This document shows positions 53,306 to 62,213 of a DNA stretch of 64,000 nt, in pieces (the first letter of the stretch is position 1; each line of letters starts with the position of its first letter). Position numbers and translations under genes: made by a program. Under the pieces are notes generated by a model that had not been told where the DNA came from, searched no databases, and saw nothing but the letters and a program-made list of their open reading frames with translations. Location of the stretch: the NCBI GenBank assembly GCA_963765575.1, contig CAVXWZ010000001.1, positions 192,001-256,000 on the forward strand, written 5' to 3'. The DNA comes from an uncultured cyanobacterium. GTDB lineage: Bacteria > Cyanobacteriota > Cyanobacteriia > PCC-6307 > Cyanobiaceae.

Positions 53306-54420
53306 TGCCGGTGCCGAGGCGTTCGATGTACTGGGTGAGGTAGAGGGGTTCGGCAAGCAGGGGATTGGCGGGGATGGAGCCATGGGGCTCGGCGTAGCTG
53401 GGCGAGGCTGAGGGAGGGTGGCAGGTTGCCGGGGTTCCACACCTCCACGCGATCGGCGAACACCATCACCTGCACGGAGCCGTTGCTGGTGTAATCGCGG
53501 TGGGCGACGGCGTTCACGATCGCCTCGCGGATCACTTCAGGCGGGATCTCGTAGGCGGCGGGGGCCTGGGTGGAGGCGGCGCGGGTGCCGACGGCAAAGC
53601 TGAGGCGGGCGAGCACGAAATCCACCGCCTGATCCACCAGCTCGAACACGGTGCCCTTGAACACCTGATAGGAGGGGATCGGCTTGGCCACGGCCGTGCC
53701 GTGGAAGTGGGCGGCCTTTACCTCGCTGCTGAGCAGGAAGCGCTGGGGCTGACGCCCGAAAAGGAGCACGGCGGCATTCACGGGCTGGCCGTTGTCGATC
53801 AGGTTGAGGTGGCTGAGCAGCTCGCCGGGAGAGGCGTTGGGCGGCAGGGGGAAGCCGCGCACCTGGCGGGCCCGGTCGATGAACCAGGCCATGCGCACGG
53901 CATCGAGATCCGCGAGGGAGGCCTGGGGGCAGGGGGAGGCGTCGAAGGGGCCGCTGCGGATCAGCTGGCGATCCTCGAGCCATTGCACCAGGGCGGCATA
54001 GAGGCCGGCGATCAACTCGGCGGTGGTGGCGAAGCGGCGCCGCACCAGGGAGGCCTCGGCCTGGCGGATCAGGGCGAGCATGCGCGGATCGCGGCTGGTG
54101 TCGTCGGCGGCCTTGAGAAAGATCAGGCGGGTCTTGCCGCGGTCGCCGGCCCGCTGGAATTCCCGCTCAGTTGGGGAGAGGCCTTCGGCATCGACGCTGC
54201 CGTACTCACTGCCGAAGAGGCCCACGTAGATCTCGCACCGGGCCACCAGATGCAGGTAGAGATCATCGGCGCGGCGGTCGCTGGCGGGGAGGTCCTCGAA
54301 AAGCACCGGCTCGAAGAAGCGCCGCAGCAAGGGATCTCCCTGGAGGAAGTCACGCAGGGCCAGCCGTTCGGTCGCGAACTCCTTCTGCACGCTGCTGAGA
54401 AAGATCGCGTGGAGGGTCAT
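53300..54420 (-). pseudogene. DUF4062 + HATPase_c_4 (RecG C-terminal-like) protein, 3'-truncated
   Basis: IFLSSVQKEF..ER, REAIVNAVAHRDY, DRVEVWNPG, then (after an extra base near 53391) SIPANPLLA..YIERLGTGT. Confidence 0.8.
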
Positions 54421-57619: not shown

Positions 57620-60019
57620 GCGAACCCCATCCGCTCCAGGTGCCCGGCCACCCGCGCCTCTAGTTCCTCCACTCGTGCGCTGATCGCCGGTAGGGCCTCG
57701 CCGTAGCGCTCGCCCAGCTGTTTGAGGCGGCTGGTGAGGGCCTGGCTCACCCGTTCCACTTCGGCGGCCACCGCCTGCTCCAGGCTGGCCAGCCATTTGC
57801 CCTGCACCACCAGCTCGCGCACCTCGGCTTCCGTGAGGCTGTCGTAGCGGCCGTAGGCCTGGTCGTCGAGCTCGGCTTCGGCGGCCTTGAGGGCCTTCTT
57901 GGTGGCGGCCTCCTCGTCGCTCAGCTCCAGCCATTCCCGCAGCACGGCCAACTCCTCAGCGGCTTCGGGATCCTTCCTGATCTCCTTGATGCGGGCGTTC
58001 ACGGCGGCCTTGTTGACCTTGTCCAGCTCGCTGAAGGCGCCCTCCTCGCCGCCGTGCTCCTCCTCCAGCTCCGCCAGGCGGCTGCTGGCCTCCTCCAGCT
58101 GGGCGCGCAGGGCCTCGATCATCTCCAGATCACCGGCAAACAGCTGCCGCACCAGCAGCTCCTTGGGCACCAGGTCGCAGGCCCAGCCCTTGTCTTTGGT
58201 CTTGCCCTTCTTGTCGGTCTCCAGCACCCGGTAGGGCTCGGCGCGCCAGCCCTCGGCGCTGATCGCATACACGTCGTCCTGCATCGTCTCGGCCCACTGG
58301 TCGAGCAGCAGCTGGTACACGGCGTAGGCATCGATCAGGGGCTGGCCCTGGTAGTGGGCCAGCAGGCCCTCGCTCAGCTCGCGGATCACCGCCTTGGGGT
58401 GGCAGCCCGGCTCCAGGGCCAGCAGCTGGGCTGCCGCCTGCTGCCGCCAGGCCGCAAAGTGCTCGGCCATCCCCGCCAGGAAGCCGGCGAACTGGGGATG
58501 GGCGGTGATCGTGGCCTTCAGCTCCGCCGGCGGCACCGCCAGCTCCAGATAGCCGGGCCGCAGCGGCCGGAACAGGGCCTCGCGCAGCTGCGGGCACACC
58601 TGCCAGTAGGCCTCCAGGGCGTCGATGTCGCGCTCGGGGATGCCGCCGCGCAGGTGGGCCTCGATGTCCTGCAGGTCTTCCGCTTCGCTGAACTGTCGAT
58701 GTAGCGGGGCAGGTTGAGGTTGTAGTCGTGCCCGGCGATCTCCTCGTTGCGCACGAAGCGCGAATAGCCGGGCACCTCCAACTGGCGGGTGAACACATCC
58801 ACGATCTTGTGGATGTCGCGCTCGCGCAGGCGGTTCTTGGGGCCGTCCTTGATGAAGCCCTTGCTGGCATCCACCAGGAAGATGCCCTCGCGGCTGCCGG
58901 CGTCGCGCTTGTCGATCACCACGATGCAGGCGGGGATGCCGGTGCCATAGAAGAGGTTGGCCGGCAGGCCGATGATGCCCTTGATCAGCCCCCGCTGGAT
59001 CAGGTTCTTGCGGATCTCGGCTTCGGCGTTGCCGCGGAACAGCACGCCGTGGGGAAGGATGCAGCTGCCCCGGCCCGTGCTCTTGAGCGTGCGCACGATG
59101 TGCAGCAGGTAGGCATAGTCGCCCTGCTTGCTGGGCGGCATGCCAAAGCCCTCGAAGCTGCCGTAGTACTTCGTCGGCATCGAGGCCTGTGCTCCAGCGT
59201 TTGTCGGAGAAGGGCGGATTGGCGACCACGAAGTCGAACTGTTTGAGCTGATCGCCCTCCGTCAGCTTCGGGTCTGCAATGGTGTTCCCCTGCCAGATCG
59301 TGGCGGTGGGGTTGCCGTGCAGGATCATGTTCATCCGCGCCAGGCCGCTGGTGGCCGCATCCTTCTCCTGGCCGTAGAGCGTTACCGGCGTGCGCGCCTG
59401 GGCGGCCACTTTCAGCAGCAGCGAGCCAGATCCGCAGGTGGGGTCGCAGACCGTGGTGTCGGCGGAGGTGGCTTCCTTGTCGATCTCCAGCACCTGGGCC
59501 TTGATGCGGCTCACCTCAGCTGGCGTGTAGAACTGCCCTTTGCTCTTGCCGCTTTCGCTGGCGAAGTGGCGCATCAGGTATTCGTAGGCATCGCCGAGGA
59601 TGTCGTCGTCGTCAGCCCGGTTGCGTGAGAAGTTGAGCTCCGGCTTCTCGAAGATGGCGATCAGGTTGGTGAGCCGCTCCACCAGCTCCTTGCCGCTGCC
59701 GAGCTTGGCCTGGTCGTTGAAGTCGGGAAAGTCGCTCTGGCTGAGCTGCTGGTTGGCCGCCACCAGCGGGGCGATGATCTTCTTGTTGATGTCATCGCCG
59801 ATCTCCGCCTTGCCCTTGAGGGCCACCATGTCGGCAAAGCCGGCATCCCTCGGGGATCACCAGCGGCGCATAGGGCTGGCCGGCGTACTTGTCGCTGATG
59901 TACTTGAGGAACAGCAGCACCAGCACATAGTCCTTGTACTGGCTGGCATCCATGCCGCCGCGCAGTTCATCGCAGCTGGCCCAGAGGCTCGAATACAGCT
60001 CGGATTTACGGATCGCCAT
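57610..60019 (-). CDS. hsdM: type I methyltransferase subunit, frameshifted
   Basis: LWASCDELRGGMDAS, GQFYTP, DPTCGSG, NPPF, LPHGVLFRG. Confidence 0.93.
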
Positions 60020-60022
60020 GGT

Positions 60023-61872
60023 TCAGGCGGCCTCCCCTTGGGCGCTGGCCAGCAGGGCTGGGGGGATGTCCTCCAGCCAGCCCTGCTGTGACAGCTGCTC
60101 CAGCCGGCGGCTCAGTTCTTGGACCTCCAGGCTCAGGGCCACGCTCTCCTGCTCCAGGGCCTCGGCCCGATGGAGCTCGCTGGGGTGGGGGATCACGACG
60201 GGCAGGCTCTTCACTTCGCCCATGGGCAGAAAGGCCACTGCTGTTCCCTGACCTGCCTTATTCAACAGGGTCTGTCCCACGGCACTGCGGAGATACTGCA
60301 CCAGGGCGGCTGGGGTGAGCGGGGCATTGGGCCGCAGGCGGACCACGCAGAATGCCTGGCCGGGCACTGTGGGGTGCTGGAGGTCCTGAACCACGGCCAC
60401 CTTGCCGAGGCCGCCCTTGATCGACAAGAGCACATCTCCCGGCTCCAGCAGCTGCTGTCGTCCCTTGGCCAAGGCAGCCTCCGGCAGCCGGATCCGCTTG
60501 GAGCCTTGGCGGAGCTGGCCGGAGTCGTCAATGTCGCCCGGGAGTGACCTCCCGAACCTCGATGCCGTCGTCCTCCTGGCGGCCAAGGGAGGCCACAGGC
60601 CTTTTGATCTCGGCCAGATCACCCAGGTGCATCGTTGTCCGTGATTCCAGATAGCGCTGCAACATCCGGTCTTCTTCTGTGAGGAAGTAGCGGCTCACCT
60701 GGAAACTGAAGCCGTTTGCCTCCAGTTCCTCGGCCGGGATCAGACGGGCACATGAGCCTTCACCTCTCAGTTGAGGAGTTGGGCGAGTTCCTTGCACCCG
60801 GTTGGATTCCAGCTCTGCTTTGTATTTCTAGCCTTCGTCGGGGTTAGCAGATCGTGGGCCGAAATCATCTGAATGGGAGCGCCAACAGCGCGATCCTGCT
60901 TGAGGACCAACAGCAATCCCTCGAGGTTGGTTCCTGCATGGGCCCCAGAAGGCAGGGAAATCACGGCATCCAGCCAATTCTTCTTCAATAACTCCTCGCG
61001 GAAGTACTCCAGATCTTTGGAAGTCCGAAAGCCAATTCCTGGAGACATCAGGGCATAGGTGGTGCCACTGCAGCGCTGATGGGCGGCAAAAACCCTTCGC
61101 GCTTCGCTGTCTCTGATTGCCGAGGGGCAGTCGAGCGGTGATGGCGGCAGCCAAGGGTCGTCGATCAGCAGTTCACGCGTTCGCGCTCCCCAGGGTGGGG
61201 CGGCGATGGCAACAGGCCATTGGTCCTGATCCGCGATGGACTGCAGTTTCACCTCTTGCGGATAGAGGCTGAGCAATCCCAGAACCCAATGAGCCTGCGA
61301 CGGATTTGCTGAACTCAACAGCAGACCATGGTCCATCCCCAGGAAAGGGGCTGCTGCCACTCCCATGGGGAAGAGGCAGGCCACTGGAGCCCAGGATGAA
61401 TGGCCAGCAGGGCTTCCCAGAAGCCGCCCATGGAAGCAGAGCATTCCAGCTCCCCACCATGCCGATCGCTGGCTTTCAGCTCCGAGATCGCTTCGATCAC
61501 GGCCTTGCACTGCAAGCGGTCACCACTGTTCAACGCTCTCCCGACTGGCAACAGGGTGCTCCTGAGTCGCTCAAGAGATTCAGGCCCGAGTCGATCCGTC
61601 GCTGCTCCTGGAGGCCAAGACATTGCGGAACGTTCAGCGATGGTCTTATGGATGGAGTTCCATTCATTTGCGTTAGCCAAGCTGCGCATGGAATCGAAGT
61701 AACCGACTAGATCCCCATCGGAAGCTGGAACCCAGCGGGCCCAGAGCAGCACATCCAGCACGGCCTCCAGGGCCTGATCTGCAGGAAGGGCGCCTCGGAG
61801 CTCATCGCAGGCCTCCCAGATCGGCTTCTCAACGCTGGCCCGGCTGATTGCATTCGACGTCATGGTGGCCAT
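60023..61872 (-). CDS. degenerate HsdM-like methyltransferase fused to one HsdS-like TRD (about 3 frameshifts)
   Basis: IWEACDELRG, APPW at motif IV, FREELL..LDAVISLP, EELEANGFSFQVSRY, LGDLAEI, LEPGDVLLSIKG.LGKVAVV. Confidence 0.8.
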
Positions 61873-62132
61873 CAGTAGCGGTTGAAGCTGTCGAAGTCGT
61901 AGGCCGTGACCAAGGCGCCGCCGCACTCGACGACGATCACGCCGCCCTTGTCCATGGCCCTGATCAGCTCCTTGCGCTCGCGATCAAGCGCCTCCAGGAC
62001 CGTGCGGATCTGCTTGCGACCCAGCACCAGCTTGTCCCCATGGGGGATGCCGTGCTGTTGCGCGAGCTCGACGGTGGCTTCGCGGATGCCGCGCTGGGAG
62101 ACCCGAGCGCCGTAGTGGTTGGTTTTGGCCAT
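61872..62132 (-). CDS. DUF4258-like small protein (86 aa)
   Basis: TNHYGARVSQRGI...VIVVE..ALVTAY; AGGAGG RBS; TGATG coupling to next gene. Confidence 0.75.
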   Translation of the reverse strand: MAKTNHYGARVSQRGIREATVELAQQHGIPHGDKLVLGRKQIRTVLEALDRERKELIRAMDKGGVIVVECGGALVTAYDFDSFNRY

Positions 62133-62156: not shown

Positions 62157-62213
62157 AGCATGGCAGGCAGCGAAGACCATGTCAAGTATCTGCAAACATG
62201 TCAGACACTGACA
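62157..62213 (-). promoter_or_regulatory. sigma70-type promoter with TGACA operator repeats
   Basis: TTGACA (62185-62180)-17 bp-CATGCT (62162-62157) preceded by TGn; TGACATG x2; TGTCAG-N3-CTGACA. Confidence 0.6.

Follow-up and report, generated by a model that had tools for sequence, protein, structure and literature searches.

The stretch of DNA analysed here, called the window below, comprises 64,000 nucleotides of contig CAVXWZ010000001.1 (positions 192,001 to 256,000, forward strand) from an uncultured cyanobacterium of the Cyanobiaceae. On its minus strand, a type I restriction-modification (RM) operon was found to be headed by a two-gene module, in which a gene for an 86-residue DUF4258-like protein is followed by a gene for a pseudo-methyltransferase fused to a single target recognition domain (TRD). 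The small gene (62132–61872) overlaps the start of the fusion gene via TGATG (61874–61870), and the fusion gene (61872–60023) stops 3 bp short of the ATG of hsdM at 60019. These coordinates agreed fully with the original prediction, made from the sequence alone, of a two-gene head with TGATG coupling and a 3-bp gap to hsdM. Upstream of the small gene, the palindrome TGTCAG-TGT-CTGACA (62213–62199), a putative operator and the only 6-3-6 copy genome-wide, is followed after 13 bp by a sigma70-type promoter (62185–62157; TTGACA at 62185–62180, 17 bp, TGn-CATGCT with the hexamer at 62162–62157) and by the ribosome-binding site AGGAGG (62141–62136).

The fusion gene of the window was split into four pieces by single-base breaks near 61390, 60769 and 60537, as located by pairwise alignment with genome G012 of the same genus, which has a single open frame of 616 residues across the gene at 97% DNA identity. 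None of the three indels was present in contigs of other public runs (X1 and X2 cover two of them, X6 the third). Because the G012 frame was open and the contigs of other runs lacked each indel, the breaks were judged private to this assembly or strain, and they are most likely errors. Single-base gaps relative to G012 numbered 7 in the hsdM region, these three included, and 10 in the hsdR region. In a genome-wide indel comparison, the core genes of relatives were only ~80% identical to those of the window genome.

The pseudo-methylase–TRD fusion

The fusion contained IWEACDELRG, GELECS (~61455–61438), CLFPMG (~61378–61361) and APPW (61201–61190) in alignment with HsdM motifs, whereas the adjacent hsdM retained GQFYTP, DPTCGSG and NPPF. 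The HsdM-like N-terminus and the degenerate motifs beside an intact hsdM, as read earlier from the letters, thus agreed with the alignment. The structure model of the fusion (predicted local distance difference test score 81.6, predicted template modelling score (pTM) 0.78) ended in one TRD and a 33-residue helix. Its top Foldseek matches were the type I methylases 7eew, 7vs4, 7vru, 3lkd and 5ybb, and the N6_Mtase profile matched the fusion with an E-value of 3e-9. According to the model and these matches, the fusion has a predicted HsdM fold with the N-terminal helical domain. In HsdS two TRDs and two conserved regions are expected, whereas the fusion carried one TRD (residues ~413–562, 60638–60188), its best-conserved part, and one C-terminal helix (60187–60074), which corresponds to an HsdS conserved region and is a putative dimerisation coil on the basis of the model and of analogy with Esub1 and an engineered M–half-S fusion. 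The claim of one TRD with a coiled tail was borne out by Specificity_I matches in PADLOC, by a match to Esub1 and by the model helix at residues 564–596.

When the intact copy was used as query, 127 matches were obtained among 8000 candidates; 121 sequences were taken, and the 110 with at least 600 residues all carried the same degenerate motifs. Among 1.84 billion representatives, 288 matched in a profile search at E ≤ 1e-30, with the individual rows unchecked; of the best 150 listed, most had 550–650 residues. In 140 family rows aligned with four HsdM sequences, motif I (DPxCGxG) had D in 0/140, C in 1/140 and the last G in 17/140. At motif IV (NPPF), N was kept in only 6/140, with the two prolines kept in 114/140 and 112/140. 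It had been set as a test whether homologues keep an intact NPPF/Y and motif I; a family-wide loss was found instead. An acidic residue beside motif II (E/D, 102/140) and D/N at motif III (94/140) occurred among distant members, which may bind S-adenosylmethionine or a similar ligand; the window clade lacked the acidic residue beside motif II. Judged by its motifs, the fusion family is a catalytically dead, dedicated HsdM lineage joined to half an HsdS. Database labels of the family ('N-6 DNA methylase' or 'subunit M/S', with a DNA-methylation Gene Ontology term) are probably wrong with respect to methylase function. In PADLOC and NCBIfam, no model named either module protein as a system component beyond generic methyltransferase or S matches.

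The ratio of non-synonymous to synonymous substitutions (dN/dS), calculated pairwise over 16 loci of the window clade, was 0.18 for the whole fusion, 0.19 for the methylase core and 0.10 for the TRD, and that of the small gene was 0.11 (15 loci). These values are rough, with dS near 1, saturated pairs dropped and pairs non-independent. Among four loci the TRD was 81–96% identical, compared with 33–69% for their HsdS; the TRD of an HsdS is expected to be hypervariable, whereas that of the fusion was conserved and had the lowest dN/dS. In an unrooted tree built from the cores of 22 pseudo-M and 15 neighbouring HsdM, one branch (98/96) divided the former from the latter, although the branches were long. 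Because of this separation, the tree indicates that the dead copies did not derive from the adjacent hsdM.

The small protein and the distribution of the module

The small protein of the window carried H6, R10, SQRGI, VVE and LVTAY. Its earlier designation as DUF4258-like was supported in part: in a profile search the window protein itself had no Pfam or DUF4258 match, and the designation was taken from its relatives. DUF4258 matches were found in 21/35 family members at E ≤ 0.1 (best 1.1e-5), and the L026 member, at 24.3 bits, fell short of the cut-off of 25. For one distant member, the nearest Atlas clusters (0.94–0.95) had DUF4258 in 18–31% of members, and RefSeq calls the plasmid homologues in L046, L047 and L050 'DUF4258 domain-containing'. 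In the 35-row alignment, H6 and R10 were at least 90% conserved and R14, T76 and Y78 were invariant. The rows thus held His and Arg/Lys on the first helix and a conserved last strand, the residues expected of the colicin-like BECR class. In the part available of a preprint (bioRxiv 10.64898/2026.08.28.747851), section 10 moves DUF4258 from RelE/ParE to the colicin-like BECR RNases; these have their active site on the first helix and last strand, and those tested mostly cut tRNA. The available text of Gerdes 2025 groups DUF4258 with RelE/ParE and calls it undescribed, and that of PMC11980606 gives no tested member for the family.

The model of the small protein (pTM 0.57) was dominated by a long helix, inserted at residues 39–61. 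With this model, Foldseek gave no PDB match at E ≤ 0.001, VIA-align gave a best Z of 3.5, on helices only, and the viral structure library gave no match; the model being helix-dominated, these results are uninformative on the fold. A profile search of PDB sequences returned designed proteins and weak rows only, and an Atlas search with the window protein returned unnamed clusters only. The small protein is likely an RNase, predicted here as a colicin-like BECR RNase. The inserted helix was lengthened or tandemly repeated in L050 (5447–5950) and L047 (5914–6213), and large length changes are tolerated.

Scans of genomes, metagenomes and viral contigs with the window-clade TRD as seed, together with plasmid searches and genome samples, yielded 50 distinct loci with a whole or near-whole fusion, a set biased to small cyanobacteria and Rhodobacteraceae-type bacteria. 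Five partial loci (L023, L025, L098, L100 and L101) and 3 duplicates were left out, and L141 (842 residues, M with two TRDs) was excluded as a different protein. The DUF4258-like gene upstream was intact in 37 of the 50, partial in 5 and absent in 8; the next gene behind the fusion was hsdM in 38, hsdR in 2 and none in 8, with 2 at a contig edge. Hosts were Cyanobacteria, Obscuribacterales, Alpha-, Beta- and Gammaproteobacteria, Campylobacterota and Bacillota. The RM systems behind the module were unrelated, with an 800-residue M, a two-M NPPF/NPPY type, an EcoEI-like R-first type, and 508- and 679-residue M proteins. Whether the pair co-occurs elsewhere at the head of type I RM operons had likewise been set as a test, and such loci were found across phyla.

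Other genes were also found behind the module. On a Synechococcus elongatus plasmid the pair preceded a Swt1-HEPN gene. In L140 (G179:C55, 4029–9315, minus strand), a DUF4258 gene and an 817-residue fusion variant with a long C-terminal extension, with no hsd genes, headed AAA_21/AAA_15 ATPase and DUF4435 genes with AriA/AriB matches, that is, a PARIS-like pair. On the cyanobacterial plasmids L051 (4589–7958) and L133 (5746–9170), a fusion without DUF4258 headed a 65-residue ribbon-helix-like gene, with weak TacA1/CopG matches, and a tyrosine integrase. Other Pfam-less small genes took the place of DUF4258 before distant fusions in L135 (4573–5103), L136 (4813–5289) and L132 (4551–4820).

The module was rare. 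In the phylum sample, full-length matches at E < 1e-100 occurred in at least 3 of 400 other genomes, plus G179 at 5e-65, and most of the 79 matches at 1e-40 were ordinary HsdM. In the proteobacterial samples, no new match was found at 1e-75 among 400 genomes of the G480 phylum or 400 of the G481 class. All genome-sample counts are lower bounds, with 3 candidates scored per genome. Phage records contained no full-length fusion member, viral contigs gave 1 locus, and the listing gave no RNA holder. The island was 91–97% identical to G012 against 76–80% for core genes, which indicates that the module or island is mobile. It is also dispensable for the hsd operon, because G026 keeps a remnant of the fusion before an intact hsdM and both module genes of G056 are decayed. 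The G026 remnant (L019, G026:C175, 2524–2614) comprised the last 30 fusion codons only; the G056 copy is L018 (G056:C7).

The promoter palindrome and its proposed reader

Neither the palindrome nor control of the module's own promoter had been named in the original prediction. The palindrome was present in 19/19 window-clade loci examined, perfect in 14 and with one mismatch in 5. TTGACA followed at exactly 13 bp in 17/19, with variation in the 3 central and 13 spacer bases. A scan of 301 family genomes for the palindrome plus TTGACA gave one match each in 4 genomes, all at the promoter of this module, and the reversed control pattern gave 1 match. A generic promoter scan of the window did not list this conserved sigma70-type promoter. 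A first operator candidate around the promoter, CTTGAyATG...CATATCAAG, was not conserved in the clade and was dropped. The same promoter sequence, found in G1283 of the window's family, occurs in L022 (contig CALRKZ020000002.1), which is titled Mesorhizobium; the title is probably wrong.

Other clades carried palindromes, read by eye, that likewise have a three-base centre and are either related to this one or different from it. In most Rhodobacteraceae-type loci the site kept the 13-bp distance. It covered the −35 in L026, L027 and L134 and the −10 in L051 and L133, flanked the −35 on both sides in L047, and followed the −10 in L048 and L050. In 29 other-clade loci odd-centred palindromes exceeded all 100 shuffles (z 3.2–5.6); two regions had been chosen after the promoter had been seen. 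At p < 0.05 the window-clade matrix recovered the site in only 4/21 more distant loci, as the site differs from clade to clade.

The type of site tracked the TRD tree in a comparison of 35 loci in which kin share labels: the TCAG/GCAG type occurred in a 23-row group (85/90) and the GTAC type in a 6-row group (86/79). All 3 tested loci without DUF4258 (L029, L051 and L133) retained their clade site, with p of 0.002, 0.012 and 0.002 for matrices built from DUF4258-bearing loci; the cross-clade matrix controls gave p of 0.036, 0.15 and 0.65. L048, also without the small gene, kept a perfect palindrome. Conversely, the small gene was found in 5/381 genomes, with the fusion alongside in 4 of the 5. 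In the fifth, G441, an intact copy had no fusion gene within 18 kb and lacked such a site ahead of its −35. At that locus (L158, G441:C1, 4564–5406, plus strand), the DUF4258 gene was TGATG-coupled to a 98-residue gene, followed by a 93-residue gene, and may represent a sub-clade with a different partner. Because the TRD is 81–96% identical where HsdS is 33–69%, it appears to behave as the reader of a fixed site, unlike a restriction specificity.

A different reader, namely the small protein itself binding the palindrome and exerting control, was regarded as improbable. Its gene comes first in the operon, as do those of C proteins and RptR, and it is basic with a long helix that could dimerise. 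Nevertheless, the site persisted at the loci without the small gene and was not seen upstream of the lone small gene, and relatives of the small protein matched DUF4258 and no DNA-binding family.

Proposed operon control, rival explanations and neighbouring genes

We consider it likely that a fusion dimer with the shape of an M2S1 methylase attaches to the promoter of its own operon and governs the small RNase, the fusion itself and the downstream defence genes. DNA binding and control by the dimer are inferred from sequence conservation. Two fusion copies would pair via the C-terminal coil, rebuilding the M2S1 shape with two identical TRDs. The dimer would bind the palindrome at its own promoter (here TGTCAG-N3-CTGACA) and, when bound, would set the transcription of the small gene, the fusion and the genes behind, most often the hsd operon. 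This geometry would fit, because an engineered HsdM–half-HsdS fusion dimerises and reads a palindrome and Esub1 is a half-S homodimer. Since the sites overlap the −35, the −10 or the start region in several clades, the control is probably repression. Activation may also occur, to judge from the fixed 13 bp upstream of the −35 in the window clade, and C proteins are described as both repressing and activating (PMC12707154, from the part of that text available, as for the papers cited below). Such promoter control would hold down the level of the small protein, most likely an RNase that is toxic or slows growth.

Several points weigh against promoter control by the fusion. The other-clade sites were picked by eye, about 12 of the 29 loci are Rhodobacteraceae-type kin, and no clear site was found in 6/35 loci (L044, L049, L108, L125, L135 and L136). 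Even spacers gave z of −0.3 to 2.1 in the 29 loci, with spacers 6, 8 and 10 matched by 2, 0 and 3 of 100 shuffles. L046 has a KGS motif like that of the GTAC group yet a TCAG-type site, the control of L029 with the matrix of another clade was not clean (p 0.036), and the evidence from DUF4258 alone is the single locus G441. In addition, a plain repressor would leave ~400 retained residues of dead methylase (dN/dS ~0.19) unexplained, and a further role is likely.

One such role was suggested by the retained body itself, which would be explained if the full M2S1 shape matters as a bait. It is conceivable, though we hold it tentatively, that the dead dimer is a bait on its own promoter, from which Ocr or ArdA pull it off, inducing a tRNase-type effector together with the defence genes (hsd, PARIS-like or HEPN). 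Sensing of DNA mimics is compatible with promoter control, and would then act via transcription. For a repressor a TRD dimer alone may suffice, by analogy with Esub1. Gene regulation by ArdA has reportedly been described in a 2026 paper (PMC13300388). Among the fold matches of the fusion were 7eew, 7bst and 7bto, structures cited for binding of Ocr/ArdA to the M2S1 shape. M domains add DNA affinity in type I enzymes, and the simpler cause that they merely do so here is equally good as the bait on present evidence.

An antitoxin-decoy guard, in which the fusion holds the DUF4258 RNase and releases it on binding Ocr or ArdA, was judged rather unlikely, if compatible with promoter control by analogy with the autoregulation of type II toxin-antitoxin systems. 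As in those systems, the two genes of the module are coupled and the promoter region that they share holds a palindrome. The tight translational coupling speaks for a guard, as do the intact DUF4258 gene in 37/50 loci and the observation that partner loss mostly hits the small gene (5 partial, 8 absent). His6, Arg10, Arg14, Thr76 and Tyr78 are 90–100% conserved at the colicin-like active-site places given in the part available of the BECR preprint. The pair also lacks downstream hsd genes in L044, L050 and L140, and in L140 it heads the AriA/AriB-like pair, PARIS being an Ocr sensor (PARIS preprint). However, a type II toxin should never stand intact without its partner, whereas the small gene of G441 does, with no fusion in 18 kb; 8/50 fusion genes have no DUF4258 upstream; and a mere decoy needs no conserved sequence-specific TRD and operator.

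The original prediction had offered as its alternative a non-catalytic subunit lending the RM complex an extra TRD, and a replacement of one HsdM may be added. Although hsdM or hsdR comes next in 40/50 loci and an engineered active M–half-S fusion works with HsdR (PMC6158711), this was considered very improbable: the fusion precedes unrelated type I families and occurs without any, its TRD is conserved and not variable, and the genome shows no depletion of shorter site cores. The least probable account, to which we give almost no weight, is local decay of a duplicated hsdM–hsdS. The three frameshifts in the window copy and the decayed G056 copy would agree with it. Against it, 110 full-length close homologues share the degenerate motifs, the dN/dS of the fusion gene is 0.18, the fusion is separate from neighbouring HsdM in the tree, and the indels are private and also strike hsdM and hsdR. 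By dN/dS both module genes are under purifying selection, hence not local decay. What stood of the earlier interpretation is a conserved module at the head of RM operons, pairing a dead M–half-S with a DUF4258 partner of conserved His and Arg; the extra TRD is unlikely.

Known counterparts of the fusion include fused or halved type I subunits. The engineered SauI CC398-1 HsdM–half-HsdS fusion dimerises and reads the palindrome ACCN5GGT (Bower et al. 2018, PMC6158711). It has the same domain order (M, one TRD, conserved-region helix), but is an active methylase that restricts with HsdR, whereas natural members lack motif I and the catalytic Asn and have a long putative site at their own promoter. 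The best PDB sequence match of the TRD was Esub1 of Streptococcus pyogenes (8VSQ/8VSR, E 9e-6), a half-S homodimer and proposed transcription factor with a DNA cleft to which the phage protein paratox binds (PMC11754733). As described there, Esub1 differs in having no methylase domain, a location away from hsd genes, no DUF4258 partner and an unknown DNA site.

The module resembles an RM controller in heading an operon with a conserved palindrome at its own promoter. RptR, which occupies the same slot before hsdM, has been proven to be a repressor (PMC12255303); like C proteins (PMC12707154), it is encoded by the first operon gene and binds palindromes in its own promoter. In the available texts both are small helical proteins of another fold, with no dead methylase and no coupled RNase. 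Controllers are expected to be small helix-turn-helix or four-helix proteins, whereas the reader proposed here is a 616-residue HsdM–TRD fusion. M.SsoII, M.Ecl18kI and M.EcoRII are m5C methylases. In these, a methylase polypeptide likewise controls its own operon, but they are active type II enzymes with a separate repressor domain (PMC12707154); in the window fusion the enzyme is predicted to be dead and the TRD itself would be the reader.

Likeness to guardian systems was also considered. PrrC has an ABC-type ATPase sensor and acts by protein-level release, as does PARIS in the part of its preprint available, unlike the mechanism proposed here. Both have an RM-linked, RNA-level effector that fires on anti-restriction (PMC12707154; PARIS preprint), and L140 carries the module ahead of an AriA/AriB-like pair. 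The small protein shares with DUF4258/Ntox49 the N-terminal H..R..R helix and the terminal TxY strand (PMC11980606; bioRxiv 10.64898/2026.08.28.747851), but has an inserted helix of variable length, and its partner is a dead methylase, not of MqsA type. The module would thus work like an RM controller, perhaps like a guardian, yet belongs to none of those families.

A literature search, covering main texts outside subscription journals, found no description of this architecture, and the main text of PMC13069673, as available, does not mention it; these genes may appear in the supplementary neighbourhood tables of PMC12255303, PMC11980606, PMC13069673 and the BECR preprint. It seems that a restriction enzyme has been rebuilt into a gene switch, which phage anti-restriction proteins might trip. 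If true, this would show a restriction methylase turned transcription factor in nature, a step discussed by Bower et al. (PMC6158711) only as an evolutionary link in the text available. It would also place a DUF4258 protein beside RM in a context that can be tested, the first of its kind, and might reveal a new way of sensing DNA mimics; if the bait is real, a transcriptional sensor of anti-restriction has been built from the target enzyme itself. The module is directly testable, since it offers a named protein, an exact predicted operator and clade-specific pairs of site and TRD.

The downstream type I operon of the window opens with hsdM (60019–57610, minus strand), which has intact motifs and is frameshifted in this assembly. 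The remainder (approximately 57620–49323, minus strand), all indel-fragmented, comprises hsdS, GmrSD/DUF262, DUF4062, a small P-loop gene, hsdR and a YgjP/M48 peptidase. The GmrSD/DUF262 gene (56549–54417, minus strand) sits between hsdS and hsdR, as in L016 and L024, placing a type IV-like nuclease within a type I operon. A DUF4062 gene with a RecG-C-like part and a small zeta-toxin-like P-loop gene lie at 54420–52973 on the same strand; the G012 alignment flanks the DUF4062 gene on both sides and does not cover it. An ArdC-like anti-restriction gene (ArdcN and zincin domain, 48794–47733, minus strand) lies directly behind the operon. On the other side of the module, a DprA-like gene (63751–62681, minus strand) strongly matched PsyrA (E 1e-107), and upstream of it, up to 64000, lies the end of a gene with a phosphoribosyltransferase-like motif; a PsyrTA system is probably located just upstream of the module.

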